DNA of 64,000 nucleotides from a virus. The notes below the pieces were generated by a model, which ran no database searches, was not told the origin of the DNA, and saw nothing but the letters and a program-made list of their open reading frames with translations. The position numbers and the translations under genes are program-made. Positions 10,762 to 56,100 of the stretch are shown here, piece after piece. The DNA lies in IMG/VR virus record IMGVR_UViG_3300045988_174992, one strand, 5' to 3'. Every line of letters begins with the position of its first letter. Positions within the stretch are counted from its first letter, which is position 1.

Positions 10762-11538
10762 CTATACTTCTTCTGTCATTTTATTGTGTTCTGCTTTTCT
10801 TCTGTTCTTATGTCCTGCATAATATATTCTAGAAATGTTAGCAGTTTTAACTGCCTCTATAGCATAAATCAAGTCTTTCTTGTTGATAGCTTTTGTCTTC
10901 TTATCATATCGACATGCCTTCATTCGTTTCCAGAACCTTGTCTTTCTTACACCATCTGGTCCACAATTGTATGTCAATGATGTCAACCCATCAACAAATG
11001 ATTGGGTATAGATAAATCTATGGTCAAGTTCAGAAAGCAATTCTCTTACATGAACATTGAACTTATCCATATCTTTATCAAATAGCTTATCAGCATATTC
11101 TTGACTTATCTTATGTGGAATATTATCTTCATAGATTACATGGCCATAACCTATAGTATATCTCTTTTCACCTTTAAGCTTGTAAGCGGTAAGGACACAA
11201 GATTCATATTTCTTGATGAACTCTTTTCCTTTCTTACTTATACTGGCATTCTTATATGTATAAGTATTAGTATGATGTTCGTGTACATCAGAAGATTTTG
11301 CCATTGTATTGATATCGATAGTCATCATTTCCTCAATACGTTGTACTCTTTCTTCTATAGTAAACGTATCTCTTACTACACTATATAGCTTAATATTCTT
11401 CCAAAGATGGGCACTGTCTTCCTTTTCTTTTATTAATGAATTGATATTAGGACTAGCATTAATGAACATAGGTGGTAATGTTCCAGACAATCCACCTAGA
11501 AATGCAGAACCTACTATCAAATATTTTATCTTCTTCAT
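10762..11538 (-). CDS. GH24 (T4-lysozyme-like) endolysin with an N-terminal hydrophobic signal/anchor
   Basis: KGKEFIKKYESCVLTAYKLKGEKRYTIGYGHV matches the E...YTIG.GH core of phage lysozymes. The N-terminus MKKIKYLIVGSAFLGGLSGTL is a signal or SAR-like segment. Confidence 0.75.
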   Translation of the reverse strand: MKKIKYLIVGSAFLGGLSGTLPPMFINASPNINSLIKEKEDSAHLWKNIKLYSVVRDTFTIEERVQRIEEMMTIDINTMAKSSDVHEHHTNTYTYKNASISKKGKEFIKKYESCVLTAYKLKGEKRYTIGYGHVIYEDNIPHKISQEYADKLFDKDMDKFNVHVRELLSELDHRFIYTQSFVDGLTSLTYNCGPDGVRKTRFWKRMKACRYDKKTKAINKKDLIYAIEAVKTANISRIYYAGHKNRRKAEHNKMTEEV

Positions 11539-23406: not shown

Positions 23407-24000
23407 TTACTTATAGATTTCAAGTTCATCTTTATCCATCAGCATTAGTTGATATAATATATCTGCAAATCCTCCATGTCCACCTTGATATTTAGAAACA
23501 TAGTGAAAAAATTGCTTTATATATTCAAAGCAATTATCTGTAGTAGCACATATATTTGCTTTTGATGCGGCATTCAAATCACTTGGACTATCACCAATAA
23601 AAGCAACAATGTATCCAGCATCTCTGCATTTCCTAACCATTTCTTCTCTTTCTTTTGAATTTGCATTTGTAGCATGTAACATGAAAGAATTACTTATTCT
23701 TCTATCTGTAATATTACCTCCAGTCTTATCATCTGTTACGAATAAGAATTCCCATCCAAGATCCTTAGCAATATTAAATAATTCCTTATCATGGCAACCA
23801 TAAGTCTTGAATCGTTTTCTGTTTTCATCATAAGTCATATTTCCATCTGTCAATATGCCATCACAATCAGAAATTATGATTTTCTTCATATTGATATATT
23901 CTAAGGTATGCTTGGACTTAAAATAATCAGCCCAAGTCAAACCTTCTTTCAATATTATTCTTGATGTTTTGAATTTACTTTTTTCCATTAGTACATTCAT
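23407..24000 (-). CDS. KdsC-type HAD-IIIA sugar-phosphate phosphatase
   Basis: Motif I in IISDCDGILTDG, plus the C-terminal FIGDSPSDLNAA. The true start may be the internal MKKIIISD. Confidence 0.65.
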   Translation of the reverse strand: MNVLMEKSKFKTSRIILKEGLTWADYFKSKHTLEYINMKKIIISDCDGILTDGNMTYDENRKRFKTYGCHDKELFNIAKDLGWEFLFVTDDKTGGNITDRRISNSFMLHATNANSKEREEMVRKCRDAGYIVAFIGDSPSDLNAASKANICATTDNCFEYIKQFFHYVSKYQGGHGGFADILYQLMLMDKDELEIYK

Positions 24001-25447
24001 TAATTATATTAGACAATCCAGAAATAGCATACTCAAATACAATATTCAATTTCATAATATCTTTTGCAAAGATTGGAAGCATACTAAGCAAATGAAGATA
24101 AATAGCTGTTTCAATAAACACATCACAATCTTCTATTTTTGGAAGTTCATCTACTTTATATGTCATTTCCTTTCTCAAAGCATCATCCAATCCAATCTCT
24201 ACCATATAAGCTTCTGATTGGTCAACAATTGGATGACAGAAAAATGATCCATTTCTTCTTGATATTGGATTATACAGTTTAATATCTCCAGTCATATTTA
24301 CAAGAACATTATGCGAATTGATGTTTCCATGAGTCAGTACCCATTCATCATTCGCTAAACCATCTATGAGAATATCACATGCATTATCTATAAGTGTTTG
24401 AATTTCTGCAAATGTTATGTTATTTTCAAAAAGCCTACGTGTATCACAAATTCCCTTCAATGGTTTACCATTATATTCTTCTAACAGAAATTTTACTGAA
24501 TATGACAATGGCACATCTACTTTATATCTTACAAAATCATTTAAAAGATTGGTAAGATTTATCTTTGATGCATGTGTATATCCTTCAAGATTATGCATAT
24601 CACAAGCATATCCATCTTCTGTCTTACTTACTGGCATATCTACAACATAATCACTAATTCCAGGATTATAAGATAAGAAAGAAGTCCAATCATACTGATA
24701 GTTCAAATGCTCATTTGTTTTTGATACGTATTGCATAGATTCTTTATCAGTATATGAAACCTCCATATCAGTAGGTAAAACCAAATCTTTCTGATAAGAA
24801 GTTGACATGATCTTCTTATATTCTGATAATGACTTATATTCAGTTATTTTTGTATTGATATTTGATTCAACAAAAGTAATCATACCATCATTTACTTTTT
24901 CTTGAATAATATCAATCAAATCTTTATTTTCATCACATGGCTTAGTTGGAATAACCTCTGAAATATCTTTGATCCAAAAAATACCTGGAACATTTCCATC
25001 ATAAGCAAATGATCTGTTTACAATCTTACCATCTTCTATATTATATCGATATTTTGCATCATTTACAGTAAAAATCACACAATTGTCTTTATCTTCAATT
25101 TTTCTATCCAATTTGAATTCATCATTATCAAACAAAATATCTGACCAGAAAAACAAAACATTCTTCTTTGGAAGCCAATCATATACAGAAGCTAAAGTAT
25201 TGCCTGAACCATTAGTATTGTTTGATACAATCACATCAACATTAAGATGATTGATTTCAATATAAGCTTTCATGATATTTGCAAACTTTTTATTTACAAC
25301 AATACTTATTGTATTTGCTTCATCAAAATAATCTAATTGCTTAATCAAAATTGGTGTTCCATCTTTTGATGGTAACAATATTTTAGGAAAACAAGAAAGT
25401 TCATTAAATCTGGTCTGTAATCCACCAGCTACTATTACAACATTCAT
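23975..25447 (-). CDS. bifunctional sugar-1-phosphate nucleotidyltransferase / kinase-like protein
   Basis: The N-terminal VVIVAGGLQTRF...PKILLP is the NTP-transferase G-loop. The C-terminal LTHGNINSHNVLVN...DIKLYNP resembles the APH/choline-kinase catalytic loop, but the usual Asp is Asn. Confidence 0.6.
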   Translation of the reverse strand: MNVVIVAGGLQTRFNELSCFPKILLPSKDGTPILIKQLDYFDEANTISIVVNKKFANIMKAYIEINHLNVDVIVSNNTNGSGNTLASVYDWLPKKNVLFFWSDILFDNDEFKLDRKIEDKDNCVIFTVNDAKYRYNIEDGKIVNRSFAYDGNVPGIFWIKDISEVIPTKPCDENKDLIDIIQEKVNDGMITFVESNINTKITEYKSLSEYKKIMSTSYQKDLVLPTDMEVSYTDKESMQYVSKTNEHLNYQYDWTSFLSYNPGISDYVVDMPVSKTEDGYACDMHNLEGYTHASKINLTNLLNDFVRYKVDVPLSYSVKFLLEEYNGKPLKGICDTRRLFENNITFAEIQTLIDNACDILIDGLANDEWVLTHGNINSHNVLVNMTGDIKLYNPISRRNGSFFCHPIVDQSEAYMVEIGLDDALRKEMTYKVDELPKIEDCDVFIETAIYLHLLSMLPIFAKDIMKLNIVFEYAISGLSNIINECTNGKK

Positions 25448-29203: not shown

Positions 29204-29238
29204 ATAATATAGTAAAGTATGTATAAACTTTTCAAAAG
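29204..29238 (-). promoter_or_regulatory. Bacteroides-type -33/-7 promoter in the divergent region
   Basis: Minus strand reads CTTTTGAAAAGTTTATACATACTTTACTATATTAT. Confidence 0.4.
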
Positions 29239-29267
29239 TATTTTTACATATATAAGATTTATTCAAT

Positions 29268-30341
29268 TTGAAAATGAAGTACAATGGAACAAACTACATT
29301 ACTGAACTGAAATCTATAGAATATATAGTAGAGAAGAACAGTAACAGTAAAGTAGAAAATCATACACAATTTACTAAGCTTAAGAAAGTAGAAAGAATAA
29401 TATTGATAGGTGAACTTTACTTGAATTCAGTAAAGATGCTTAAGAGAGATAAGATAAAAGTAGAATATGCAGATCCAACTAAGCTCAATTTTTCTTTCAA
29501 AGATGATAAGGTACATATATACAGTGGAGAGAAAGATTTACCTGATATAGTACTTACTAAAGCAGATTCTAAGAATACCATAGTATTGATGCGTAGTGGA
29601 TATACTAAGGAAGTGATAGCAGCTTTACTTGATGCCATCCAAGAATTAGATATACTGATATTGAACAACCAAGAAGCAGTAGCTATGTCATCTGACAAAT
29701 ATGCAACTGCATGTTTCTTGACAAAATCAGAACTTCCACAGCCAAAGTATGTACTTGCAACTTCTAGTGATATAGATAAAGAAGATCATAAGAAGCTAGA
29801 TGAAAAGCTAAAGCAACTCTATGGTAAGCTGGATGACGAATTAAAGTATGTTTGCAAGATATTGAATGGTCATGGTGGTAAAGGTGTATTTTGCTGTCGC
29901 GGAAAAAACATTGTATCTATATTGCAATGTTTGTTCAAACTGAAAGAAAACTGCCCTATACTCATACAAGACTTTCAAGAAATAAAAGATGGTGATATCA
30001 GAGCTCATGTACTTACATTGAATGGAAAGCAAAAGATATTGTCTTCTATCATGAGAAAGAAGGGAAAGGATTTCCGAACTAATCTCAGTCTTGGGTGTGA
30101 TATGGAAGATAATTACAAGATGACTCCAGAACAAGAAAAACTAGCTTTAGATGCTGCTAAAGCATCTGGATTGGAATGGTGTGGTGTAGATATGCTGCCA
30201 TTACAGAATGGAAATACTATAATAGTAGAATTGAATGGTGCACCAGGACCAAGTTCACCTATCAATGATCCTAACATAGAAGAAAATAATTTTAAGTTCT
30301 TCGAAAAGCTAGTAGAAGCTATAAATGAACTTTGTAAATAA
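29268..30341 (+). CDS. RimK-family ATP-grasp ligase (paralog 1)
   Basis: KILNGHGGKGVFCC, IQDFQEIKDGDIRAHVL, DFRTNLSLGC and GVDMLPLQNGNTIIVELNGAPG match the RimK pattern (GS.G.GV, iQeyi...g.DiR, fRsN...GG, GVD......V.EvN.sPG). Confidence 0.8.
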   Translation: MKMKYNGTNYITELKSIEYIVEKNSNSKVENHTQFTKLKKVERIILIGELYLNSVKMLKRDKIKVEYADPTKLNFSFKDDKVHIYSGEKDLPDIVLTKADSKNTIVLMRSGYTKEVIAALLDAIQELDILILNNQEAVAMSSDKYATACFLTKSELPQPKYVLATSSDIDKEDHKKLDEKLKQLYGKLDDELKYVCKILNGHGGKGVFCCRGKNIVSILQCLFKLKENCPILIQDFQEIKDGDIRAHVLTLNGKQKILSSIMRKKGKDFRTNLSLGCDMEDNYKMTPEQEKLALDAAKASGLEWCGVDMLPLQNGNTIIVELNGAPGPSSPINDPNIEENNFKFFEKLVEAINELCK

Positions 30342-32091
30342 AATGGAAAAGGAATATAAGAATATAGAAAATGCAAACATAAATGAAGCAATGGCGCTTC
30401 TGAAAAATGATACCAAGTTAGAGATAAAGAATGTAATATGCTTCTATGTTGGAGAAAATAAAGTAAAGAGCTATGATGAGGCAGTAAAAGAAAAAGAAGA
30501 AGATTGGTCTTATCAAGACTATTTGACTATTTGCTGTCATAAGAGAAAGCTGAATCTTGTATGGTTGAATAAAGCTACGGTACGATTTACCTATTCTAAT
30601 CATATCATATCTATAGATGATGATATAACAGATATGCATTTCTCATTGAAGCATTCTAATATTCATGATACTATCATATTTCAAGGTCAGGCCAATGATG
30701 ACAATAAGAAAAACTATATTGGATTGATGAGAGCATTTGAATATGAAGGTTTCTTCATGCTGAATACTATAGATGAAATCATCATAGCATCTGACAAGTA
30801 TCTTGCATCTAACTTGCTAGCCAAAGAGAATATTCCACAACCTGGATATGTATTGATAACAAAAGAATTGATGGAAGACTTGAATACTGAATGCCATGAT
30901 ACTAGAGAAAGTTTCTGGAAGATGCTTGATTCTATTTATAAAGATAATGAGAACATAAATGAACTGAAAGAAAACAGGCAATATGTAGTAAAGATATTGA
31001 ATGGCAGTCTTGGTATTGGTGTATTCATTTGTAATCATGATGAAATAGAAGGAATACTGCAAGCAATGTTTACTGTTGACAAAGAAGCAGAATTCATCAT
31101 ACAAGAATATAAAGAGAATACTGGAGACATTCGTGTACATGCATTTTCTGTTGATGGTGCCAATTATGAGATACTTGCTTGCATGAAACGTGATAAGATA
31201 AGTGGTGACTTCAGAAGCAATGTTTCATTAGGAGCTAAGACTGAAGAATATCAGATGACAGACAAACAAAAAGAAATTGCATTGAAGGTCGCTAAGCTTT
31301 CTGGATGCAGATGGGTTGGTATTGACTTGATGGCTTGTACTGATGGAGACTTTGTTATAGAATACAATTCAAGTCCTGGTGTTCAAGGAATATCCCAACA
31401 AATCAAGCATAACATGTTTGATATTGTGATAGATAAGATAGAAGCATACATGAAGAATAATGCTATATATTATACTGATGACTTTGAATTTGGTCAAGAC
31501 AAAGGCAGATGCTTTACATCATACAATAAAGACACTATTCTTGAACTTTGGGAGCATGATTGGTCATTCATATCTAGCAAGAGACAAGAAGTAATGTACA
31601 ACTGCTTACTTATGCAACCAGGTCTTTTCTATAAGATACATGGTAAAGACAAACCAGAATATGGATTAGATTGCTCTGGATACATCAAATATGTAATGAA
31701 GAAGGCATTGAATGTAAAGACACCTAACATGTGTGTTGACTTCTTCACTATATTTACTGATAATGATTGGGAAAGAATATCTGTTGATGATCTTAAGCCT
31801 GGTGATATAGGTGTAAAGAATGAATCTACTATATTGAATCACTGTGGTATATATGCAGGTGCAGGAAAATGGTTTGATACTTCTTATCTTTATGGAGTAC
31901 AATTATCTGACTATTCACACTTCAAATACTTCTTTAGAATAAAGAATATAGATACTGATGCTTTGGGAGAAAAGACTGATCATTTAGTAAGAAAACTCAT
32001 TTCTTCTGGTGTATTGCCAAGACCAGAAGATGAAATAACTGTTGCTCCATCCACTATTGGTGACCCATTAGTAGTATCAATAGATTCATAG
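30325..32091 (+). CDS. RimK-family ATP-grasp ligase (paralog 2) fused to a C-terminal NlpC/P60 cysteine peptidase
   Basis: ATP-grasp blocks: KILNGSLGIGVFIC, IIQEYKENTGDIRVHAF, DFRSNVSLGA and GIDLMACTDGDFVIEYNSSPG. NlpC/P60 blocks: YGLDCSGYIKYVM...LKPGDIG...NHCGIYAG. The start may be the ATG at 30343. Confidence 0.8.
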   Translation: MNFVNKMEKEYKNIENANINEAMALLKNDTKLEIKNVICFYVGENKVKSYDEAVKEKEEDWSYQDYLTICCHKRKLNLVWLNKATVRFTYSNHIISIDDDITDMHFSLKHSNIHDTIIFQGQANDDNKKNYIGLMRAFEYEGFFMLNTIDEIIIASDKYLASNLLAKENIPQPGYVLITKELMEDLNTECHDTRESFWKMLDSIYKDNENINELKENRQYVVKILNGSLGIGVFICNHDEIEGILQAMFTVDKEAEFIIQEYKENTGDIRVHAFSVDGANYEILACMKRDKISGDFRSNVSLGAKTEEYQMTDKQKEIALKVAKLSGCRWVGIDLMACTDGDFVIEYNSSPGVQGISQQIKHNMFDIVIDKIEAYMKNNAIYYTDDFEFGQDKGRCFTSYNKDTILELWEHDWSFISSKRQEVMYNCLLMQPGLFYKIHGKDKPEYGLDCSGYIKYVMKKALNVKTPNMCVDFFTIFTDNDWERISVDDLKPGDIGVKNESTILNHCGIYAGAGKWFDTSYLYGVQLSDYSHFKYFFRIKNIDTDALGEKTDHLVRKLISSGVLPRPEDEITVAPSTIGDPLVVSIDS

Positions 32092-32128
32092 ATTCACTAG
32101 GAAAGTACCTAGAATGTTTAGGAAGTGG

Positions 32129-32170
32129 AAAATGCTTCAGACTTAAGTCTGAAGCATTTTTTGTTTTTTT
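32129..32170 (+). terminator. strong rho-independent terminator
   Basis: 14-bp stem AAAATGCTTCAGAC-TTAA-GTCTGAAGCATTTT followed by TTGTTTTTTT. Confidence 0.85.
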
Positions 32171-32233
32171 CTAGTTAACTCTTAAAAGATATTCAATTGA
32201 TGATATTTTTACTTAAGCATATATCTAACTTAC

Positions 32234-34069
32234 ATGAAAAGCAACACAATCATAATAAATGGAGACAAATATTTAGTGGAAATGATTGATTCTGATATAA
32301 TTTCTACTAAACAGTATGTTGCATTCAGAAATAATGATGTCATAAATGACATGACTGTAGATACAGATATATACTTAGCTCCAATAGATAGGGATATCCC
32401 TATTATATGGCCATCTACTAACACAACGGGAATTCCATTGATGTCAACAAATTCTGATGCATTTTCAGAATCTATTAAAAATGAATATGATAATCCAACG
32501 CCAGCAAGAATTATTCCTAAATATTATTCTACATGGCGTTGGCGTAGATATTCATTCAGCATATTGCTTGATGAAGATCTATATATAAAGAATGTTAAAA
32601 CAATAAAGCTTAGAATATGGCACCCAACAACTGATTTGAATCGTGATATGATATTGTATGTTGATAGTTGGGTAAATTCTTTACATATCCATTGGTATTG
32701 CGATATAATACAACGTGAAGATAAGCATACAGGTAAAGAAAGACGACTAAATCAAGATATATACAATGAGTATTTTGAGGTAGAAATTCCTGACTTTAGA
32801 GACGTCTTATATGGGTCTACATATATAGAAGAACCATCATTGATATTTAGAAATGAATATTCTAAAAATAAGATAAAATATGCTGAAGAACTTATTCCAG
32901 TTAGAGCCATCCATAAAGATACAGATTATAAAGTATATGAAGAGTTAGAAGAACCAGAAGATGGATGTATTCAATTGGCAGATATGAACTTACTGTTGCA
33001 TTATTGGAAATATCATAAGGAAGATGATGGAACAGAAATGAAGGAGTATGTTGAAAATCCATACTCTATTCCTGAAATGATTTCACTAAATGTAACTTTA
33101 TATCCATGGAAATCAATATCGGATAATGGAATATTTACTATAAACAAATATGCTAAACCTGCTTCTTGCTATTTTGTTGATGACTTTAAAATGTCAATAA
33201 AAGCATCATTTGAATTCATAAATGGTACAATATCAGTAGTTGGTAGATTTTGCTATCCAGAATCATTTTCTTCTATAGAATCTGCTTGGCAAAGAATATA
33301 TAGTACTGACTTTTCTAAATATAAGTCATTATCAGAAAAGGCCAAAGATTATGAAGATTTGAAAGAAATTTTGGGTGATAGCTTAGAAATGGTAAAATAC
33401 ACATGTATTGTTTCTTCTGACTATCTATCAAAAAACATAATACATGAAGAAATATCATATTCTGATAGGGTTGATGACTTTTCGTTTCCTATGAAAGACC
33501 TGTTTTCTAAATGGTCACAAGTACCAGATAATGTTTATGTAAGACTCATAATGGAAGACAGAGCTATTGGTAAGAACTGTTCTTCTCCTACTGTATTATT
33601 TACCAAAGACAAATTGAAATATACAATAAATGAACAACAGTATACTAGATTGTCTATAAAGAAAAAAGAAACAGATATTGATGATATGAATAAAGAGAAT
33701 TTCAACTTCATAAGCAATATGAATTGTCGTATAGTAAAGAGTAATGATGACAAACAGCAAATACAAAAGAATTCTGTTCAACCAAGAATAATTTACAAAC
33801 CAATATTCTTTAAAGTTCAGGATTTGCAGAATATAGTATTGCGTTCAAACATGTCACAAAACATTGGAATATCATTATCTTCTTATGTAAACAAAGTAGA
33901 TGAATTCATATTGTCAATAGGAGAAAACAAGTGGCATGAAAGTTCAAGAACATCTTCATTTGTCATATTCAATGTAAATTCCAAACTTATAAAAGAAGCA
34001 ACTGGAAAATATGATATTCTTACTTCTGATAATGAATATCTGTCTACAGGAAATTATACCATAGAATAA
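32234..34069 (+). CDS. virion/baseplate-module protein of unknown function (611 aa)
   Basis: Large ORF immediately upstream of the gp25-like and J-like baseplate genes. Confidence 0.5.
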   Translation: MKSNTIIINGDKYLVEMIDSDIISTKQYVAFRNNDVINDMTVDTDIYLAPIDRDIPIIWPSTNTTGIPLMSTNSDAFSESIKNEYDNPTPARIIPKYYSTWRWRRYSFSILLDEDLYIKNVKTIKLRIWHPTTDLNRDMILYVDSWVNSLHIHWYCDIIQREDKHTGKERRLNQDIYNEYFEVEIPDFRDVLYGSTYIEEPSLIFRNEYSKNKIKYAEELIPVRAIHKDTDYKVYEELEEPEDGCIQLADMNLLLHYWKYHKEDDGTEMKEYVENPYSIPEMISLNVTLYPWKSISDNGIFTINKYAKPASCYFVDDFKMSIKASFEFINGTISVVGRFCYPESFSSIESAWQRIYSTDFSKYKSLSEKAKDYEDLKEILGDSLEMVKYTCIVSSDYLSKNIIHEEISYSDRVDDFSFPMKDLFSKWSQVPDNVYVRLIMEDRAIGKNCSSPTVLFTKDKLKYTINEQQYTRLSIKKKETDIDDMNKENFNFISNMNCRIVKSNDDKQQIQKNSVQPRIIYKPIFFKVQDLQNIVLRSNMSQNIGISLSSYVNKVDEFILSIGENKWHESSRTSSFVIFNVNSKLIKEATGKYDILTSDNEYLSTGNYTIE

Positions 34070-34072
34070 AAC

Positions 34073-34426
34073 ATGGAAATAGATCTTGCATTAGATAATA
34101 GTAAAGTAATAGAATCACCTTTTGATGCTGCTATACAAGAATTAGATTTGTTGCTTGGAACAAATTGCACCGAAGTTTTAGGAAACCCTGGATTTGGAGT
34201 AAACATGGAACAGTTCTTATGGCAAATGACCCCATCTCCAATGGAAGTACAATCATATATACAGAGAAAGATAATAGAAAATACCTATTGGTGCAATAAG
34301 TTAAATGTAAGCATAGAAGTAAACGTCATAAAAGGATCTTTACGTGATATATATGAAGTTAAGATTGGATTGAAAGCACCAAATACTGGTAATCTAGTTA
34401 AAGAAAAGAAATATCAATACAGATAA
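34073..34426 (+). CDS. baseplate wedge protein, GPW/gp25 family
   Basis: 117 aa. LLLGTNCTEVLGNPGFGVNMEQFLWQ fits the gp25/W pattern (...G..p..P.FG..l...lf). It is followed by a J-like gene. Confidence 0.6.
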   Translation: MEIDLALDNSKVIESPFDAAIQELDLLLGTNCTEVLGNPGFGVNMEQFLWQMTPSPMEVQSYIQRKIIENTYWCNKLNVSIEVNVIKGSLRDIYEVKIGLKAPNTGNLVKEKKYQYR

Positions 34427-36079
34427 ATGAGACTATTTGAAATATTAAAGACATCTTATGAGAATTTTTCTGAAACCATGCAGGATTTTCTCAACAAATC
34501 ATTTGGTGGTTTAGGACAAGCATATTCCCAATCATCAATATTTGGATCCGTATTAGAAGGAATAAAGGGTGTCATGCAAAATATGATGTTCTACATAGAA
34601 GATGCTATGACAGAACAGAATATATTTACTGCTACTAGAAAGAAGTCAATATACAGCTTAGCAAAAATAAGTGGATATGATGCATATTATGGTGCCGCTG
34701 CTTCAGGTACTGTGCTCATTTCTAATAAGATATCTAATTCAACTGATAAGATAGTTATAGAAGATGAATGCCAGTTGATGAATGATTCAACTGGTGTAAC
34801 ATATTCTGTTGATTTACCTGTTGATTCCATGGTAATAGATATGAGTAAACCATTAGTTACACATTCTATATCTATTTTACAAGGTACATGGAAAAGAGCA
34901 ACTGCTACAGCTAAAGGAGAACCATTAGAAACAATAGAAGCAGAAGTAAATAGCTTGTATGACATCAATCACATGAAAGTATATGTAAATGGAGAAAGAT
35001 GGTCAATATCAAGTTGTTTGTATGATATGATAGAAGATGAACATAGTTGTGTAGTAAAGAATGGTTATGATGGTGGATTCTCTGTTATGTTTGGTAATGG
35101 ATATCATGGACACAATTTAAGTGAAGGTGACCAAATAACTGTAAAATACATATCTCATGATGGAAGTCTTGGAAATATTTCACCATCAGATGATGTTACT
35201 TTGAAATTCAAATCTTCTGTAAGAAATTCTATTGGAGATTTAGTAGAAGCTAATGACTTGTTGAATATCACAATAACAAGCTATATATGTGGAGGTACAG
35301 ATGCTGATACTATTGCAAATGTAAAAGAATTAGTTGGTATGAATTCTAGATCTTTAGTATTGGCAAGTGAAGACAATTTCAAGATGTTCCTAAAGAGATT
35401 TTCGTTTGTTGGACAATTCAATTTGATGTCATCTAGAAATTCTACAAAGATAACTTGTATTGCATTTTCTAAATTCAAAGATCACTTATCTACTCCAAGT
35501 GATTATTTGGAATTAAGTAAAGAATCTATGCTATTGACTGATAATCAAAAATCCATGATTATTCAAGCTTTAGAACAATCAAACAAAGCTTTTGTTGGTA
35601 CTTCCCTTGCTTTTGTAGATCCAATAATAAGAAGATACTCTATCATGTGCTATATAAAGCTATCAACATCTACAATAAAAGATTCTATAAAAAACAGCAT
35701 AACTAATGTAATATCTAATTATTTCATGTCATTACCTACTGATACGTTGTTCATAAGTAAATCTGAATTGATATCGTATGTTACAGAAAATACTAATGGA
35801 TTGCTTAGCTTTGACTTGGATTTCATATCAGAAGCAGATGAGATAGCTAGATACAGGGGTTATTGGTATAAGAAAGAACTTCATTTTACATCATCTAAAG
35901 ATTTAAGTTATGTTGATGTAAGAACAATATATGATAAGTCAGATATGATTGGATTGGACGAAGTTGGAAATATAAGACTTAAGACAAATCTAGAAATGCC
36001 AATTATCCATAAATGTACTATGACTTATGATGACATGACACAACAGCAAGTAGAACCAATACAGTTCTTCTTCTTATAA
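34427..36079 (+). CDS. baseplate J-like protein (P2 gpJ / T4 gp6 family)
   Basis: Size, position after the gp25-like gene, and the characteristic ICGGTDADTIANVKEL segment (compare GG.d.E....lR). Confidence 0.6.
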   Translation: MRLFEILKTSYENFSETMQDFLNKSFGGLGQAYSQSSIFGSVLEGIKGVMQNMMFYIEDAMTEQNIFTATRKKSIYSLAKISGYDAYYGAAASGTVLISNKISNSTDKIVIEDECQLMNDSTGVTYSVDLPVDSMVIDMSKPLVTHSISILQGTWKRATATAKGEPLETIEAEVNSLYDINHMKVYVNGERWSISSCLYDMIEDEHSCVVKNGYDGGFSVMFGNGYHGHNLSEGDQITVKYISHDGSLGNISPSDDVTLKFKSSVRNSIGDLVEANDLLNITITSYICGGTDADTIANVKELVGMNSRSLVLASEDNFKMFLKRFSFVGQFNLMSSRNSTKITCIAFSKFKDHLSTPSDYLELSKESMLLTDNQKSMIIQALEQSNKAFVGTSLAFVDPIIRRYSIMCYIKLSTSTIKDSIKNSITNVISNYFMSLPTDTLFISKSELISYVTENTNGLLSFDLDFISEADEIARYRGYWYKKELHFTSSKDLSYVDVRTIYDKSDMIGLDEVGNIRLKTNLEMPIIHKCTMTYDDMTQQQVEPIQFFFL

Positions 36080-38160: not shown

Positions 38161-39804
38161 ATGTCATTTTTAGATTTTGTAAAGCATAAAGATATGATGA
38201 ATGAGAATGCTCAATGGATAAATGAAGCATTCAAAGAGAAAGATTATAATAAAGCAAAGAAGGCAATTCTCAGTATATTGAAAAAAGAAATTACTGTAGG
38301 AAATGTATACTACTTAGGTGTATATGATTTAAAAGTTGATGGCAATGATTGTAGTTCAGCAATGTATGTTGTAGTAGATAAGGATGATGTATCAATGAAA
38401 TCATCATTTAGCATCAACTTTTTGAAGAGTGGACAATCTATGGTACCTTATTCAATTATTTTCTTTGATAAATCTTATTGTACATCAATGTTATGGGGCA
38501 ATGTTTCAAATTATACAGCTAAGGCACAACTTGAAATCAAGATGATGGGTGCTAGCATTGTTTATTATATTCCAGTAATTGCAAATGTAATAAACAGTGG
38601 TAAGTTTGATATTTCATCAGAAGAAGCAGTAAAGCTTGGGCGTAAAGTATATGATACCAAGAATGAATGTGTTTCTTGGGATATGTATTTTGGTGCCCAG
38701 AAATATCATATTTATGAAGGAATTTCTGAAGATAAGGTTATTGAAAAATTCCATTTAAATCTTGGTCATAAATACAAGAAAGTTGATGATACATATCAAT
38801 GGATAAATGAAACAGAGCTTGAAGATCGTAAGAAAGAAGTATATGCTAAGATGAAAGAAAATACTGATCCAGATGTTGGTAAAGCTCTCTATAAAGAATA
38901 TCGCCAGATATTGAATGCTATTAAAGGTGGTGCAACATCTTTGGAAGATCTTGAATGTTCTGTGAAGAAAAATGTTTCAGTATCATCTAGTATTCCTGGT
39001 GCTGCAGAAGCACAAAAGAAGATTGAGATAGCTAAGTCAGATCCTAAGACGGCATTCAAGGAAATGCAGATGTATGTTAAGATGGTTATCAAAGGAATTC
39101 AACCTGCTGTAATTCTTTGTGGTGCACCTGGTGTTGGTAAGACTTATCGTATCATGCAACAATTGAAAGCTGCTGGATATACTATGAATGGTGATAATGT
39201 AATCAAAGGTAAGTGTTCTCCACGTCAGCTTTATTTAACACTTTATAACAATAAAAGTAAAGGTGATATTGTTGTTATCGATGATGCGGATTCGTTAGTA
39301 GGACCAAAGGCACCTGAGGATAGCATTAATATTCTTAAAGCTGCATTAGATTCCACTGCTGATGATGAAGGTCGTCTTGTATCATATAAGATTTCTGGTG
39401 AACTTAAGGATGATGAAGGTGTTCCAGTTCCTAAGTCCCATTACAACAAGTGCGGTGTTATTGTAATCACAAACTATAATGTTGGTCAAATTGATACCGC
39501 TCTTAGAAATAGAGCATTCACCCAGTCACTTGAATTCTCTGTATCAGATTTGCTTGGTATTGTAAGAGATTTGATGCCAAAGATTGAACCAGAACATCTT
39601 TCAATGTCATCTAAAGCTAAAGCAATGAATTTCCTTGAAAAGTTAGTAGAAGATAAGGAACCAATTGAAGTGAGTATAAGGTCATTTATTACTTGCTCGA
39701 GGATTTATGAAAATGCTGAAGATGAAGAAGAATTGAAGCTCTGTGAGAAAATGATCAGAGAGCAAATGCGTAATCAATCCCTTCGAGGAGGAAAGAAATT
39801 TTAA
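38161..39804 (+). CDS. AAA+ ATPase (547 aa)
   Basis: Walker A in ILCGAPGVGKTY, Walker B in IVVIDDADS, and sensor/Arg in VIVITNYN...ALRNRAF. Confidence 0.7.
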   Translation: MSFLDFVKHKDMMNENAQWINEAFKEKDYNKAKKAILSILKKEITVGNVYYLGVYDLKVDGNDCSSAMYVVVDKDDVSMKSSFSINFLKSGQSMVPYSIIFFDKSYCTSMLWGNVSNYTAKAQLEIKMMGASIVYYIPVIANVINSGKFDISSEEAVKLGRKVYDTKNECVSWDMYFGAQKYHIYEGISEDKVIEKFHLNLGHKYKKVDDTYQWINETELEDRKKEVYAKMKENTDPDVGKALYKEYRQILNAIKGGATSLEDLECSVKKNVSVSSSIPGAAEAQKKIEIAKSDPKTAFKEMQMYVKMVIKGIQPAVILCGAPGVGKTYRIMQQLKAAGYTMNGDNVIKGKCSPRQLYLTLYNNKSKGDIVVIDDADSLVGPKAPEDSINILKAALDSTADDEGRLVSYKISGELKDDEGVPVPKSHYNKCGVIVITNYNVGQIDTALRNRAFTQSLEFSVSDLLGIVRDLMPKIEPEHLSMSSKAKAMNFLEKLVEDKEPIEVSIRSFITCSRIYENAEDEEELKLCEKMIREQMRNQSLRGGKKF

Positions 39805-40896: not shown

Positions 40897-42225
40897 TTAT
40901 TTTAGATATTTTAATTCTTTCAAATACTTTGTACAAATTGCATTTCCATAAAGATAAGCAATTACACTCTTCATTGGATCATTTATGATATATGAAGTCA
41001 ATTTCATCCAAATAATACCAACGATAATCTTTATATTTGTATCAATTGGCATATCATCCAAATCAATTTGTGTAATTGAAGAAAAATCACCGGATGGATA
41101 TTTCAATTTAAGATTCATACCATCAGAATAATCAATTTCTTCAATTGTAACATAAGGAGCACTATTGAATCTTGAATATCCATTAAGTCCATAGCAGAAT
41201 TTTGCAATATCATATTCTGCCATTCCTAATCCAATTGTCTTAAGGTTTCCAAAATATCCACGTGGATCAATAAAGATTACATTACCATCTTTATCAATCA
41301 TTGTATTATCTGTATTTGGATCACCGTGACAAAGGCATGCATTGAAATTGACTTCATTATTCTCATACCATTTCTTTAATGCATCCATCAATACATTAAA
41401 ATGTGTTGTAATTGGCATGTAATCAATACATCTTACTTCAGTTTCCTCAATGAAATAATCAATCAGTTTCTTACATGGATTTACTCTAGTATATACTTTT
41501 CCAATTAATTCATTATAGAATGCTCTTCTGATATCTTCATCTTCATCATCTACATCTATATCAACATCATTAATAGTATGTAAAGCTTTGATTACATTAG
41601 AAATCAATTTCTTAAAATCTCCATTTTTGTAATACCATTCTTGTGCTGTTACTCCATCGATTTTATTCAAAATCAATTCATGTTTGTTTTCATCATATCC
41701 TTGTTTTCCACACAAACATGGTATATTGCTATATCTGTCATAGAAATCATTTTCAATCTTTTGTAATTTGATAGCATCTTCTGTTTTTGCAATCTTAATT
41801 ACTTTATCATCTTCAATTTTAATCTGATTGAAATATCTGCATGTATTTTTAGTTGACAAATCCCTAAGATATTTCTTTTGGTCAAATTCATCTCTAATAC
41901 CTCTATCCCAACATTCAATAGAAAAAGTTTTTGTCAAATCACCCATCCTATCAATTTCAGAAATTACATGTACTCTATCATAATATTCTCTATTATGGCA
42001 AAGAAATGAATTTAACAACTCAGCATATTCATGAAATGCCTCATAAACATAAATATCACCATCATATTTATCAAGCAACTCATCAATTTTTCTTTCAATT
42101 ATAGTTTTTTCTCCATCTGTAACCAAGTAAAATGGAAAAACCAACTCTAAATTAAGCTCCATATAATGGCTTTCTGGATAATGTGACTGAACAACAAATA
42201 AACAATTCTTTTTCATTTTCATCAA
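40897..42225 (-). CDS. protein-kinase-fold small-molecule (sugar/choline-type) kinase
   Basis: CLCHGDPNTDNTMIDKDGNVIFIDPRGYFG is the canonical H.D....N ... D catalytic and Mg-binding pattern of APH/choline-kinase-like enzymes. The ~130-aa N-terminal domain is unknown. Confidence 0.6.
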   Translation of the reverse strand: MMKMKKNCLFVVQSHYPESHYMELNLELVFPFYLVTDGEKTIIERKIDELLDKYDGDIYVYEAFHEYAELLNSFLCHNREYYDRVHVISEIDRMGDLTKTFSIECWDRGIRDEFDQKKYLRDLSTKNTCRYFNQIKIEDDKVIKIAKTEDAIKLQKIENDFYDRYSNIPCLCGKQGYDENKHELILNKIDGVTAQEWYYKNGDFKKLISNVIKALHTINDVDIDVDDEDEDIRRAFYNELIGKVYTRVNPCKKLIDYFIEETEVRCIDYMPITTHFNVLMDALKKWYENNEVNFNACLCHGDPNTDNTMIDKDGNVIFIDPRGYFGNLKTIGLGMAEYDIAKFCYGLNGYSRFNSAPYVTIEEIDYSDGMNLKLKYPSGDFSSITQIDLDDMPIDTNIKIIVGIIWMKLTSYIINDPMKSVIAYLYGNAICTKYLKELKYLK

Positions 42226-53100: not shown

Positions 53101-56100
53101 TTATTCGGTAGATTGTGTTTTACTATTTAATGGATTATCTCCTGCTGGTGTTTCATCTCTTTCAGCACTATTTTGACCATTACCTGTAGAAGTATCACTA
53201 TATTGCATATTTGGATTTTCTGTATCTTGAACTTGCTTTACATTTACTTCTACTGGTTTGTTCAACAATGTACTGATCTTAGAAATAGAATCCTTTATAG
53301 CAGCATGACGTTTCTTTTGCATCTCATCAGCTTGATTTATAGTCTTAGCAGATATCTTAAGCTCTCTTACAAGCTTATCCAATACAACAGCTAGCTTATT
53401 TGCTAAAGTATTTGTTAATTTGTCAAGACCACCTAATCTTCTAGCCATTTGATCTAAAGCAGTTATCAAGTTAGTCATAGTTTGTGCTTTTGCCACATCT
53501 AAAGTATTTATAGATCTAGTAAACTTAGATACATCTTGAGTTTCTGTTCTGAACTGTGATGTATTCTTTACTTTACTTATTTCTACATTTATACCTTTTA
53601 CGGCATTTATTACATTGTCATATTTAGAAGTATCCTTTGGAGCTTTATCATAAACATCAAACAACATCTTCATTCCATTATAATAATCCACCATCATAGG
53701 TCCAAACATCAATATGTTCTTAGATAAACCTTTAGAATCCAAATTAACAAATGTCTCTGATATTCCTCTGACCATCTCTTTAGGTATGTCAGAGAGTGAT
53801 ATCACTATGCTTGCAGCATTGGCTTTAGTCTCTTTCTCTAACTTCTGTTTGAATTTAATTATCTTCTTATAAGATTTTATAGCATCATTCAGTATATCAG
53901 TATATATATCAAACTGGTTTTGTATAGAAGAAAATTCATCATCTTTCAAATTAGGCATCTTCTGAATAGCTCTAGACATGCTAAATGGAAGTTGTGTTAA
54001 AACAGCATCTACTATCTTATTTAATCCATGTATATCATCTTCCTTTCCAAATTTAGATTTTAATTTAAATATGTCACTATAAGAAGATACTATGTTATTC
54101 AAAAGCTCAGTATAAGAACTATAGCTAGAAGATATCTTCTCAATGTTATCTTTTGCATCTTCAAAGAATGGTTTGAGTTCTTCTTGATTCTCATCCATTG
54201 TTGCTTTCATTACAGCATTAGGAACAGAACTTATCATTAAAGAGATAATAGCTGAAAGATTATTCATCTTAGGTTTATCCAACTTTAAGTCAAGTATAGA
54301 TTTTATAGATTTTATATTTTCTGCAATTAATTTATCTAAACCACCTAAACAGTTCTTTACCTTAGCAAATGGACTAGTACTTCCATCATGATTAAGCCAT
54401 CCAGAATCTTCAAACCAAACTTTATTATGTGGATCATCATATACAGCCATTACAGCTGCTGGTATGCAAGACATCAAAGCTGTTACGTTATTATATACAG
54501 TTCCTCCAAGTCTTAATGATTCTATTGGTATTTTTTCATATTGACCTTTAAGAAGCTTTCCATTTGAATCATACTTTTGTATTCTTAAATCAGCCACATC
54601 TTTCACACCTTTAGCGGTTTCAGACATTAATGATCCAATTCCCTTCAATGCTGTAACTATTTGCGAAAATCTAGAACAAGTTCCGTCTTTAAACACAATA
54701 GATTGATCTTCAAACATCCACTCAGCATTAGGATTGTCTTTAAGAGCCAGAATAGAATTTCCAAGACATGACACTATACGTTGAGTATTTTCTGCAGCAT
54801 TCTTGAAATCCTTAAAACCAAGTGGTCTTGTTCCTTTCTGTTTTCCATCAGCTCCATATATAGGTATTCTTAAGTCAGCCATATCTTTGACACCTTTAGC
54901 TATATTAGATATCATTTTTCCTAAGCCTGTACAACCAGTAACAATACGACCAAATGGAGTTTTTACTCCTATCATATTTCCAAGCCAACCACTATCAAAC
55001 ATTCCTTCAGGAGCTTTATTATATAAATCTAATAATGCATATCCTAAGGTTGTAACAATTTTAGATATATTTTCAGCTGCATTAGTAAAATCAGGTTCTG
55101 TTAAATTACGATATCCTACTTTGTCTGTTCCTTTATAAATAGGTATCTTTAACTCTGCCATATCTTTAACACCTTCTGCTATCTTAGCAATCATCTTACC
55201 CATTCCAGTACATGATTTCACTACTCTAGTGAATGGTGTGTCCATACCTAAGAAGTCTCCAAGCATTCCATTAGAGAATATGGTAGGATTTTCTTTGTAT
55301 ATATCTAAGATAGTTCCACCTATTATAGTAACAATAGTTTTTATATTCTCTGCAGCATCTGTGAAATCAGCATCTGTCAAATTTCTTCTTCTTATTATCT
55401 TTCCTCCTTCTCCATATATAGGTATAGAAAGATTAGCATAGTCTTTAATTCCTTCTGATAACATAGACATCATGTGTCCTAAACTAGCAATAGTTCCAGA
55501 TGCAGCAACTATCATCATATCAAGCAATGGATTCATAAATGGTTTGAGTTCCCAAACTATGCTTAGCATGGCTTTAATATCATCTGTTATAATAGAAGTG
55601 TCAACTCTTTCAAGCTTAGAAGCCATATCCATTACCTTTATTATCTCTTGCATGGCTTTTCCTGCTAATAAGACGCATCCAATGATTCCAGCTAAAGCGG
55701 CTTCACCAGCCGCTAAAGCCAAACCTCCTAAACCACCAGTTCCAGCTGATAGATATCCAAGACCTATTACTCCACCAGCAAATGCCAATAGTACTGCTAT
55801 TGTAATTCCTATAGTACCCAATAGTCCACCCCAGTCACTTCCTATATTATCTCGGAGTTTTACTATCTCCATCATTGCATATCCTGACAATCCAATACAT
55901 ACAATAACTCCTAATAAAGCTAAAGCCCCCGTTTTAAGGTTTCTTTTTACCTTGCTGAGCATTCCTAGTATGAACGACATTCCACCTACTAGCAAGAGTT
56001 CTAAACCTAAGAACTTTAGTATGTTGATATCTAAGTCTGGGTAGTTCATCAATAACATTCCACCGGTAAGCAATGCTATAGAAGAGACTAATACTAAAGC

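Follow-up and report, generated by a model that had tools for sequence, protein, structure and literature searches.

Several described systems pair an ATP-grasp ligase with a peptidase or amidase. In the RimK/RimB pairs and RimBK hybrids of Pseudomonas fluorescens and Desulfotalea psychrophila, a RimK-fold ligase is linked or fused to a peptidase that trims its product (PMC11957791, PMC7343187). The RloABC system of Pseudomonas aeruginosa (PMC12239564) combines RloC, a RimK-like ATP-grasp protein, with RloA, a RimB-like polyglutamate retropepsin, and RloB, a papain-fold, transglutaminase-like protein. RimB and RloA, as partners of RimK-like ligases, cleave polyglutamate (PMC11957791, PMC12239564), and the make-up of RloABC shows both peptidase folds to be recurrent associates of RimK-like ligases. 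In glutathionylspermidine synthetase/amidase (GspSA), an ATP-grasp amide ligase resides in one polypeptide with a papain-fold amidase (CHAP/NlpC-P60 superfamily) that reverses the ligation. Among viruses, RimK-like ATP-grasp proteins of large phages (cyanophages S-RIM/S-CAM, phages of Pelagibacter and Methylophilales, and YerA41 gp066) form PHROG 2599, annotated as "ribosomal protein S6 glutaminyl transferase." To our knowledge, the short list of targets of enzymatic polyglutamylation in bacteria consists of ribosomal protein S6 and Legionella SdeA, and we know of no phage-encoded case that has been studied.

This work describes a locus within a 64,000-nucleotide stretch of viral DNA (IMG/VR record IMGVR_UViG_3300045988_174992; here called the window) from an uncultured phage of ~290 kb known from metagenomes. 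Two plus-strand genes, A and B, encode a stand-alone RimK-superfamily ligase and a fusion of a RimK-type ligase with an NlpC/P60 peptidase (Table 1). Our best reading, to which we assign about an even chance, is an ATP-dependent system that would add and trim acidic peptides by analogy with RimK/RimB.

Table 1. Coordinates of the A-B locus and adjoining features (positions refer to the window)
Feature	Position	Strand	Evidence or detail
Divergent intergenic stretch at strand switch	29236..29273	.	ORF map, GC-skew sign change, sequence
Gene A, stand-alone RimK-superfamily ATP-grasp ligase	29268..30341	+	Pfam RimK, NCBIfam, PDB, alignment
Gene B, RimK-type ligase + NlpC/P60 peptidase fusion	30325..32091	+	588 aa from ATG 30325
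B ligase module, aa ~33-380	30421..31464	+	Foldseek vs RimK, invariant columns, dN/dS 0.03
B ligase residues	K223 30991; R297 31213; D334 31324; E346 31360; N348 31366	+	
B linker between ligase and peptidase, aa ~381-395	31465..31509	+	pLDDT <50 at residues 384-393
B NlpC/P60 papain-fold cysteine peptidase domain, aa ~396-545	31510..31959	+	Pfam, domain model
B P60 triad	C450 31672; H506 31840; D518 31876	+	
B C-terminal tail, aa 546-588, lineage-specific, predicted disordered	31960..32091	+	pLDDT <50, residues 572-588
Intrinsic-terminator-like hairpin closing the A-B unit	32123..32176	+	20-pair stem 32123-32166, then T-run
Baseplate module start	32234..36079	+	Three genes, listed below
611-aa protein, fold without assignment	32234-34069	+	No PDB match
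gp25-like protein	34073-34426	+	gp25/Pvc9/Afp9 profile matches vs PDB, 3.9e-5
gp6-like wedge protein	34427-36079	+	phrog_219, 7.6e-24

Two ligases, a fused peptidase, and their setting

An earlier note on this DNA, made by reading the sequence, had recognized two RimK-type ligases from their motif blocks, and homolog alignments bear this out. In A, K144, K197, G203/204/206, Q234, D243, R245, F269-R-T-N272, D308, E321, and N323 are invariant across 44 homologs; in the ligase module of B, the same holds across 37 homologs for K158, K223, G227/230/232, Q260, D268, R270, D295-F-R-S-N299, D334, E346, and N348. These positions comprise the binding residues for ATP, Mg2+, and the acyl-phosphate: the Lys of K-x-L-x-G, the Gly-rich loop, the Q-E/D-Y/F hinge, D-F-R-S/T-N, the Mg-binding Asp, and E-x-N. 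The loss of catalytic residues that would mark pseudo-enzymes was found in neither protein, and the invariance persists in homologs down to 34-49% identity. Pfam RimK (PF08443) is matched by A at 9e-21 and by B at 1.6e-31 (aa 204-370), and A also matches RimK in the PDB at 1e-12; the only Pfam ligase models matched by the pair are RimK, GSH-S_ATP, and ATPgrasp_ST. On the NCBIfam model rimK_fam (TIGR00768), A and B score 101.4 and 120.2 bits, under its cut-off of 143.4, and on the equivalog models for RimK, MptN, LysX, CofF, and GshB both score far under the cut-offs. The two proteins share 33% identity, and dN/dS is 0.05-0.10 for A.

The earlier note had also called for structural modeling to place the ATP-grasp subfamily. 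The AlphaFold2 model of B (pLDDT 83, pTM 0.80) matches RimK best (PDB entries 5zk6 and 7qys, TM 0.84-0.86 over ~342 columns with Foldseek), followed by ArgX and LysX, and its ligase module is complete, with an N-domain, a central domain, and a C-terminal ATP-grasp domain. What had been described as N-terminal extensions is, according to this model and Foldseek, mostly ordinary RimK N-domain, preceded by a disordered leader of ~30 aa. A and B are intact RimK-superfamily ligases that, judging from their sequences, look catalytically competent.

The C-terminal NlpC/P60 domain of B, likewise proposed from its motifs, passes the Pfam threshold (NLPC_P60, PF00877; 9.5e-9, aa 436-531, 35.6 bits against a cut-off of 23). 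In homolog alignments C450 (GLDCSGY) and H506 (NHCGIY) are invariant and position 518 is D or E throughout, and dN/dS of the domain is 0.06-0.07. Its model (pLDDT 82) has MepS/Spr, Acd24020, SagA, CwlO, and LytE as top PDB matches (TM 0.7-0.8); the closest structures are peptidoglycan DL-endopeptidases, including C. difficile autolysins. The nearest non-fusion relatives, at 35-43% identity, are dual cell-wall hydrolases that combine NlpC/P60 with a SleB-type Hydrolase_2 domain. A stand-alone P60 gene was found ≤10 kb from the ligase in no relative, which argues that B was not fused from neighboring genes. Homologs of B of ~520 aa do without the tail at aa 546-588. The usual targets of NlpC/P60 enzymes are gamma-glutamyl or isopeptide bonds, and we know of no member that cleaves poly-alpha-glutamate.

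Gene A would encode 357 aa from the TTG at 29268 or 355 aa from the ATG at 29274; the latter is the most likely start, because homologs begin MKYNG. For B, an alternative conserved start at ATG 30343, where distant homologs begin, lies one base past the A stop codon. The 17-nt overlap reported earlier therefore holds if B starts at ATG 30325 but not if it starts at ATG 30343, and the genes are tightly coupled under either start. Minus-strand genes finish and the plus-strand block begins within the divergent intergenic stretch, which a scan found to be without a convincing sigma-70-type promoter; GC skew flips sign at this switch, ~29.25 kb. The strong terminator reported after the pair was recovered, in a scan that yielded 6 terminator-like sites where 1.1 would be expected for the region, and it sits between the pair and the baseplate operon. 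Within that operon, the 611-aa protein gave zero matches against the PDB. The placement of the pair at the head of the baseplate module stands for this lineage; elsewhere, 23 of 45 related loci have baseplate genes ≤10 kb from their ligase, in varying order and spacing. The phage has a separate lysozyme-family gene (10762-11538) and B lacks a hydrophobic N terminus, so B is not the endolysin. It is roughly an evenly balanced matter that A and B form one transcription unit dedicated to ATP-dependent peptide addition and trimming.

Peptidase partners across the phage ligase clade

By sequence relationship, A and B fall in a ligase clade that is specific to phages and confined to large ones. Both are 35-41% identical to single-gene phage ligases, and in a neighbor-joining tree, with RimK of E. 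coli as outgroup, they cluster together, apart from more distant phage ligases. Clade contigs come from metagenomic phages and span ~34-kb fragments to 435 kb; some are binned into ruminant-gut Firmicutes MAGs, and those of this phage with low-GC Firmicutes MAGs. The 90%-identity cluster of the B protein holds 1,686 member sequences, with close relatives on ~290-kb contigs. Most large-phage relatives are RimK-RimB-type hybrids, and the usual form in the clade is a single ~540-aa protein in which a RimK-like ligase is followed by a C-terminal retropepsin domain of the RimB/RloA family (DTG motif; Pfam "Zn_protease"). In this single-gene form, the last ~145 aa carry invariant K-x-DTGN and LLNRD motifs, and their profile matches PDB 2pma, of the RloA/RimB family, over the full length at 5e-5. 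In many relatives the ligase divergently adjoins thymidylate-synthase-like genes, an adjacency that spans a divergent promoter and is seen in some relatives only. By eye, a neighbor in those relatives bears a thymidylate-kinase-like Gly-rich motif, with no Pfam match.

An HMM scan of all fetched loci found the RimB-like domain in 53 loci and nowhere in the window, the P60 partner only in the window lineage and L009, and a small protein with the residues C64/H155/D169 only in L010, L013, and L111-113. The gene for this small Cys/His protein lies directly downstream of the ligases in sister lineages. Conserved motifs and sub-threshold Pfam matches (PF25309 in 20 of 21 members, in addition to NLPC_P60 and Amidase_6) tentatively assign it to the papain-fold amidases, with an hhalign probability of 13-16%. 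Each clade member is physically linked to one peptidase, whether RimB/RloA-type, fused P60, or the small Cys/His protein; no clade ligase locus has more than one type, and the three are mutually exclusive. In the window lineage, NlpC/P60 occupies the place of the RimB/RloA-type domain. This distribution indicates that the peptidase partner was swapped at least twice in the clade, and it supports functional coupling of ligase and amidase rather than accidental joining.

Proposed mechanism and alternatives

In the add-and-trim system proposed here, the ligases would spend ATP on activating a carboxylate as an acyl-phosphate and would join amino acids singly to an acceptor. The most likely amino acid would be L-glutamate, as in bacterial RimK/RimB, and free oligo-glutamate is a possible further product. 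The diverged paralogs probably split the work, acting as starter and extender, using different residues or linkages, or building a mixed oligomer. The NlpC/P60 domain would then hydrolyze the product, limiting or editing chain length and perhaps stimulating the ligase; that it cleaves the polyglutamate product of the ligase we infer solely from the pattern of partner replacement. Endolysin-like cysteine amidases have taken over from an aspartic RimB-type enzyme, and the ligase has been duplicated; these two changes suggest that this lineage makes a different product, which may hold gamma-glutamyl or isopeptide bonds. As the chemistry is ATP-dependent and an export signal is absent, it would take place in the cytoplasm of the infected cell. 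The acceptor may be a host protein, with ribosomal protein S6 as one candidate, or a protein of the phage, possibly of its virion; a search for acidic-tailed acceptor candidates in the window and in the neighborhoods of relatives returned none. The proposed amino acid, linkage, and acceptor follow from homology at 20-30% identity to characterized enzymes. Among the three roles put forward in the earlier note, the best fit is poly-glutamylation of a protein. Should the add-and-trim model be true, phages would tag host or virion proteins reversibly with peptides, an unexplored layer of infection, and the three natural ligase/peptidase combinations would constitute a ready-made enzyme set, possibly with different linkage specificities.

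The main rival, which we consider unlikely, makes the P60 domain a cell-wall hydrolase of the virion, either resident in its tail or baseplate or ejected along with the DNA, that cuts stem peptides at entry. The ligase modules would then be early-acting passengers or assembly factors and would have no substrate in common with the peptidase. The pair does lie directly upstream of baseplate genes, which also occur near about half of the related ligases; B has a match to PHROG 329 ("minor tail protein"; 4.9e-10); the nearest relatives of the P60 domain, by structure and among non-fused proteins, are cell-wall enzymes; binning with low-GC Firmicutes MAGs hints at a thick-walled host; and a distant YerA41 homolog was found in purified particles (PMC7354516). 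However, that particle proteome comprises 63 proteins, many of them replication enzymes, which makes it weak evidence of packaging, and the terminator parts the pair from the baseplate operon. Checks of B by Pfam and in the AlphaFold2 model found no tail-anchoring or structural, wall-binding, or second muralytic domain, and outside the P60 domain the protein is a complete RimK module. Replacement of the partner, under strict exclusion, by a polyglutamate-type retropepsin or a small, cytoplasmic-looking Cys/His protein is also hard to square with wall penetration. If the P60 domain were an entry lysin, its polypeptide would deliver a ligase too, likewise an unusual arrangement. Both activities might instead act on intracellular peptidoglycan peptides (cytoplasmic precursors or recycled muropeptides), with P60 cutting gamma-D-Glu-diamino-acid bonds and the ligases adding amino acids, so that host wall synthesis is rewired or blocked for takeover, lysis timing, or phage exclusion. 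Ddl and D-Asp ligase are ATP-grasp ligases that act on wall precursors, the P60 domain is of peptidoglycan DL-endopeptidase stock, the sister-lineage partner weakly resembles endolysin-like amidases, and both A and B look cytoplasmic. We nevertheless judge this improbable: the ligases are RimK-type rather than Ddl-type (Ddl models reach only 1e-4 to 1e-2), no further genes for wall precursors accompany the locus, and polyglutamate chains are the known substrates of the RimB/RloA-type domain that most clade members carry (PMC11957791, PMC12239564). The earlier suggestion of stem-peptide remodeling is kept as a possible role, given the origin of the P60 domain among cell-wall hydrolases.

In a third alternative, the acceptor would be a small molecule or nucleic acid (a cofactor, modified nucleotide, or DNA base) rather than a protein, and the peptidase would set the chain length. 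The RimK relatives MptN and CofF glutamylate pterin and F420 cofactors, and in the 1970s-80s Kozloff reportedly described folyl-polyglutamate in the T4 baseplate, along with a synthetase and a gamma-glutamyl hydrolase, claims said to have been long disputed. For A and B alike, the second-best NCBIfam model is MptN (tetrahydromethanopterin:alpha-L-glutamate ligase; ~1e-28), and the divergent thymidylate-synthase-like and thymidylate-kinase-like-motif neighbors of many relatives point the same way. We give such acceptors little credence, since the MptN and CofF cut-offs lie far above the scores (98 versus 350 bits), the window holds no thymidylate-synthase-like gene, and RimB-type partners act on protein-attached peptide chains or free poly-Glu. 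In addition, the hypermodification of YerA41, the sole characterized one in a phage with a homolog, is oligosaccharide-like (PMC9023294). Decoration of DNA or polyamines, another role in the earlier note, is left unsupported: the thymidylate-synthase-like adjacency is limited to some relatives and crosses a divergent promoter, and the YerA41 base is described as oligosaccharide-like. Finally, it is highly improbable that the ligases and the gamma-glutamyl-type hydrolase, associated with the baseplate or ejected, make a glutamyl chain and trim it on a component of the baseplate or a cofactor bound there. If true, this would provide a sequence-defined counterpart of the disputed T4 baseplate activities and, more generally, the first virion proteins with enzymatically added polyglutamate tails.

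Comparison with known systems

As the earlier note had supposed, no described phage system like A-B turned up in literature searches or among the predicted viral structures of BFVD. Its choice of GspSA as the closest precedent does not hold up, and RimK/RimB and RloABC serve better. GspSA resembles B in joining a ligase to a papain-fold amidase, but it consists of an N-terminal CHAP amidase and a C-terminal GspS-type synthetase, whereas B has the reverse order, a RimK-type ligase, an NLPC_P60 amidase, and no GspS-type domain detected by Pfam scan; the sequences are unrelated past the superfamily level, and the locus has no link to glutathione or polyamines. Phage tail NlpC/P60 or CHAP lysins, and NlpC/P60 + SleB-type hydrolases, have the fold and triad in common with B, and baseplate adjacency fits them, but B is always fused to an intact ligase. 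PHROG 2599 members are 25-29% identical to B and are single genes, none with NlpC/P60; an HMM scan places a RimB-like C-terminal domain in YerA41 gp066. RloABC differs in that RloA is secreted, RloB is an inactive membrane-embedded transglutaminase, the parts are unfused, and the system is cellular rather than viral.

Compared with RimK/RimB, the window encodes two diverged ligases rather than one, its peptidase is an NlpC/P60 cysteine enzyme rather than a retropepsin, and the genes are carried by a phage. RimB is N-terminal in bacterial RimBK, whereas the peptidase is C-terminal in phage B, and both A and B fall under the curated cut-off that delimits the RimK family proper. As in RimK/RimB, however, the catalytic residues of the pair are conserved, and sister phage proteins carry a RimB/RloA-family domain.

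Genes A and B and their setting

An ORF map confirmed genes A and B as two adjacent plus-strand genes for RimK-type ATP-grasp ligases. A stands alone (Pfam RimK, 9e-21), and B carries a C-terminal NlpC/P60 (P60) domain, as the earlier note had proposed (RimK, 1.6e-31; NLPC_P60, 9.5e-9, above the gathering score). The two are paralogs sharing 33% identity. In PHROGs, both are taken in by phrog_2599 ("ribosomal protein S6 glutaminyl transferase"), and the C terminus of B matches phrog_329 ("minor tail protein"). By sequence, the best relatives of solved structure are the RimK enzymes of Pseudomonas and E. coli (1e-20 for B; 1e-12 for A). Neither ligase reaches the curated NCBIfam cutoffs for the RimK family or for the equivalogs RimK, MptN, LysX, CofF, and GshB. 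On these matches, A and B belong to the RimK superfamily, and no narrower specificity can be assigned from the scores.

Start codons were reconsidered from those of homologs (see the table). The previously described 17-nt overlap stands if B begins at ATG 30325 and disappears if it begins at ATG 30343, one base past the stop codon of A. A does open the plus-strand block, the strand switch at ∼29.25 kb coinciding with a change of sign in GC skew, and the strong terminator closing the A-B unit was recovered as a hairpin (positions 32123-32176) whose 20-pair stem is followed by a T-run. The genes just downstream include those of the expected baseplate module: a protein resembling gp25 (PDB profile search, 3.9e-5, in which Pvc9 and Afp9 were matched too) and a gp6-like wedge protein (phrog_219, 7.6e-24). 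For the 611-aa protein encoded by the first gene after the terminator, relatives of known structure were not detected. The sequence ATTCAATT, which precedes A as well as the first baseplate gene, was considered as a common promoter and rejected because 6 copies occur in the window, compared with 4.9 expected. The baseplate module is accompanied in many related loci by an AAA+ ATPase (neighbor family F4, in the arrangement F3-F1-F2-F4), an unusual companion for baseplate genes.

Across 37 aligned fusion proteins 49 to 89% identical to B, all ATP-binding, Mg2+-binding, and acyl-phosphate residues are invariant, as are Cys450 and His506 of the P60 domain; every sequence has Asp or Glu at position 518. 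The expected catalytic residues of A are likewise invariant in 44 homologs, so that the loss of catalytic residues, named earlier as a sign of pseudoenzymes, was seen in neither protein. Values of dN/dS against close relatives are 0.05 to 0.10 for A, 0.03 for the ligase part of B, and 0.06 to 0.07 for the P60 part. AlphaFold2 modeled B (pLDDT 83, pTM 0.80) with all three domains of the RimK fold; RimK is the closest ATP-grasp subfamily (TM, 0.84 to 0.86), followed by ArgX and LysX. The supposed N-terminal extension of B is therefore mostly an ordinary RimK N-domain, preceded by a disordered leader. Residues 392-588, modeled separately (pLDDT 82), form a canonical P60 domain whose nearest structures are MepS/Spr, C. 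difficile autolysins, SagA, CwlO, and LytE. All of the evidence, from invariant residues through dN/dS to fold, predicts that A and B are working enzymes.

Architectures and peptidase partners in the phage ligase clade

Protein and contig searches combined with ORF analysis revealed that one phage-specific clade of ligases, whose tree is a neighbor-joining sketch, comes in three architectures. The commonest, a single protein of ∼520 to 570 aa, shares 35 to 41% identity with each of A and B; the phage contigs that carry it include fragments as short as ∼34 kb and reach 435 kb in length. Its C-terminal ∼145 residues contain the invariant motifs K-x-DTGN and LLNRD. Direct Pfam detection of this RimB-like domain failed, and a PDB profile search alone detected it, matching 2pma over its full length (5e-5) and 9g58/9g59 weakly. 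These structures are retropepsins of the RloA/RimB family, in which RimB both stimulates RimK and trims S6 polyglutamate, and RloA likewise cuts polyglutamate (PMC11957791, PMC12239564). Fusions of this type account for most RimK-like proteins of large phages, YerA41 gp066 included, and ∼460-aa versions occur on short IMG/VR viral contigs (loci L048-L060).

The second architecture, A plus B fused to P60, belongs to the window lineage and a 53%-identical relative (locus L009). In the third, A is combined with a B-type ligase that stands by itself in L111-113 and is fused to another ligase domain in L010 and L013 (∼700 aa). Where the A-type gene precedes the ∼700-aa tandem protein, three ligase modules stand in a row, and such loci occur on contigs up to 417-533 kb. 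Directly or almost directly downstream of the ligases, these sister loci encode a conserved protein of 180 to 212 aa with invariant Cys64 (ADCSGF) and His155 (GDIL..GSHVTI) and near-invariant Asp169. The three residues stand in NlpC/P60-like motif contexts. Its 22 homologs are unannotated and have no Pfam assignment; subthreshold matches were to PF25309 ("endolysin-like domain"; 20 of 21 members, best 1.6e-4), NLPC_P60 (7/21), and Amidase_6 (3/21). Profile-profile comparison with the P60 domain of B gave a match restricted to the His-motif region (13-16% probability), and a PDB profile search returned nothing meaningful. Because these profile comparisons are weak, the papain-fold assignment is drawn from the Cys/His/Asp residues and the subthreshold Pfam matches, on which the small protein is a probable papain-fold amidase.

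When all fetched loci and the entire window were scanned with HMMs, the three peptidase types proved to be mutually exclusive. The RimB-like domain is present in 53 loci, among them that of YerA41 gp066; P60 is confined to the window lineage and L009, and the small Cys/His protein to L010, L013, and L111-113. That each ligase is tied to exactly one peptidase, exchanged across unrelated folds, points to a two-activity system acting on a common substrate.

Coordinates of features in the window and in related loci (L, fetched loci; P, related proteins)
Feature	Position	Strand	Remarks
Gene A	29268-30341	+	357 aa from 29268; start at ATG 29274 per homologs
Gene B	30325-32091	+	588 aa from ATG 30325; possible alternative start at ATG 30343 per homologs
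AAA+ ATPase	38161-39804	+	phrog_1250; Pfam AAA
Cys-rich protein, 381 aa	26875-28020	-	phrog_5757 "peptidase," 1.5e-111; Peptidase_U32 weak
phrog_4098 halves	23975-25447 and 40897-42225	both -	each protein matches one half
Split anaerobic ribonucleotide reductase NrdD	5891-7408 and 4613-5659	both -	∼230 bp apart
Very large ORFs	53101-59619 (2172 aa), 59716-63549 (1277 aa)	both -	
OmpA-family (peptidoglycan-binding) C-terminal domain, 376 aa	19745-20875	-	
Phage_lysozyme protein, 258 aa	10762-11538	-	likely the endolysin
RimK + C-terminal retropepsin fusions	L014-L047 (e.g., L014:9626-11335), L008:7824-9245, L088-L094		KxDTGN...LLNRD
Small Cys/His protein	L013:12178-12804, L010:10654-11286, L111:2327-2962, L113:2274-2807		downstream of ligases without fused peptidase
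Two complete RimK-type modules in tandem, ∼700 aa	L010:8001-10094, L013:9983-12181, P0072-P0099		
Thymidylate-synthase-like neighbors and ∼186-aa protein families	L014:6117-7494, L014:7520-8080	-	also L009, L010, L015, L016, L019-L022, L027

Proposed activity and alternatives

By analogy, the characterized counterpart of the phage ligase-peptidase pairing is RimK/RimB. Accordingly, A and B would use ATP to attach amino acids, of which glutamate is the likeliest, to an acceptor, and the P60 domain of B would trim the product, a reading to which we give about an even chance. We place this chemistry in the cytoplasm because it would be ATP dependent and the proteins have no export signal. Duplication of the ligase went along with the replacement of an aspartic polyglutamate peptidase by endolysin-like cysteine amidases, which suggests a different product in the window lineage, one with, for example, gamma-glutamyl or isopeptide bonds. 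A search of the window for acceptors among ORFs with Glu/Asp-rich C termini or internal polyacidic runs gave nothing convincing, and no acidic-tailed acceptor family recurs in the neighborhoods of related loci.

Alternatively, the P60 domain of B could serve wall penetration as an entry lysin. In an exhaustive P60-only search, its close relatives were found solely inside the fusion family, and the next tier (35-43% identity over ∼95 residues) comprises genuine cell-wall hydrolases, namely, ∼560-aa proteins joining NlpC/P60 to SleB-type Hydrolase_2 and proteins with tandem P60 repeats. The origin of the domain therefore lies in muralytic stock, and it may still be able to cut stem peptides. In 23 of 45 clade loci, moreover, no more than 10 kb separates the ligase from the baseplate module. 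The ligase locus may stand upstream or downstream of the module or on the other strand, at a spacing of 38 bp to 7.3 kb, and this proximity reflects conserved synteny or else a functional link. The product of the YerA41 homolog, a middle gene, was detected in purified particles, as were 63 proteins in all, many of them replication enzymes (PMC7354516). On the other hand, B lacks a structural domain, the ligase pair is set apart from the baseplate genes by a terminator, and the phage has its own lysozyme-family gene, which also led us to reject P60 as the endolysin. A stand-alone P60 gene that could have fused is absent within 10 kb in every relative (P60 HMM), so that derivation of the fusion from a neighboring gene was likewise rejected. 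The exchange of peptidase partners is hard to square with wall penetration, and we consider an entry lysin unlikely.

We think it quite improbable that the pair remodels intracellular wall precursors, and just as little weight is given to a small molecule or a nucleic acid as the acceptor. A link to DNA hypermodification was rejected, as a thymidylate-synthase-like gene is absent from the window and the thymidine adduct of YerA41 is described as oligosaccharide-like (PMC9023294). In many relatives, the ligase divergently adjoins one or two thymidylate-synthase-like genes, often with DNA-methylase-like genes nearby. The ∼186-aa protein beside the ligase has a Gly-rich N-terminal motif (EGTDNIGKDT) that is thymidylate/dNMP kinase-like by eye and has no Pfam match. 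These synthase-like and kinase-like neighbors look like a module for modified-nucleotide synthesis, which the window does not contain. As for the preferred reading, amino acid addition and trimming by A and B, both enzymes are intact, conserved, and often sampled, and comparison of the loci gives a clear pattern that lends itself to direct tests; function and target are what we infer.

Neighboring genes, occurrence, and known systems

The gene for the Cys-rich protein, on the opposite strand, precedes the ligase pair by three small genes (∼1.2 kb); U32 family members are often O2-independent hydroxylases of RNA or quinones. One phrog_4098 protein is sugar-phosphate nucleotidyltransferase-like (the N-terminal half) and the other APH/fructosamine-kinase-like. 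In L009 and L014, both parts form one ∼550-aa protein adjoining a ribulose-phosphate 3-epimerase, and these proteins may make a nucleotide-activated sugar or alcohol. The NrdD ORFs encode an ATP-cone plus the N-terminal half and the C-terminal glycyl-radical half, respectively, and could represent a split gene or an intron/intein remnant; NrdD fits an anaerobic host. The 2172-aa ORF, scanned against Pfam only, had no match there, and the 1277-aa ORF matched neither Pfam nor PHROGs. A 96-aa ORF (1514-1804, minus strand) has a strongly acidic end (...DSDADSYSDSGFYDNPLYDSDDDW) that recalls the acidic C-terminal tips of single-strand-binding proteins.

Among GenBank phages, the window has no DNA match, and protein matches are only 25-29% identical. 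IMG/VR contigs of 148-294 kb carry the same ligase pair at 88-98% identity. The 90%-identity cluster of B holds 1,686 member sequences, including DAM31270.1, a "MAG TPA" record from a 292,794-bp contig with automated annotation only. Two contigs of the window phage are binned into "uncultured Romboutsia sp." MAGs and contigs of relatives into Erysipelotrichaceae, Clostridia, and Firmicutes MAGs. The bacterial MAGs (Romboutsia, Erysipelotrichaceae, "Firmicutes bacterium RUG343") in which contigs of the window phage and of related 400-410-kb phages were deposited involve L086 (CALFLM010000003.1), L087 (CALESE010000025.1), L088, and L091. Such placements are probably binning artifacts and hint weakly at a low-GC Gram-positive host. 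Across cellular genomes (one per GTDB species), the RimK-P60 fusion was found only on MAG-binned contigs of this phage.

Literature searches found no paper on a phage system of this kind, in line with the earlier note, nor a description of phage RimK-RimB/RloA-type fusions, and BFVD contains no protein with both RimK-like and P60 domains. The comparison drawn earlier with glutathionylspermidine synthetase/amidase holds insofar as a ligase and an amidase are combined, and no further. A and B are excluded by score from the curated RimK family, and the phage RimK-retropepsin fusions have a domain order opposite to that of bacterial RimBK. The phage system may work in the manner of RimK/RimB, although in the window the RimB domain, the defining part of such systems, is missing. 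Its likeness to RloABC lies in the association of a RimK-like ligase with modules of the retropepsin and papain folds.
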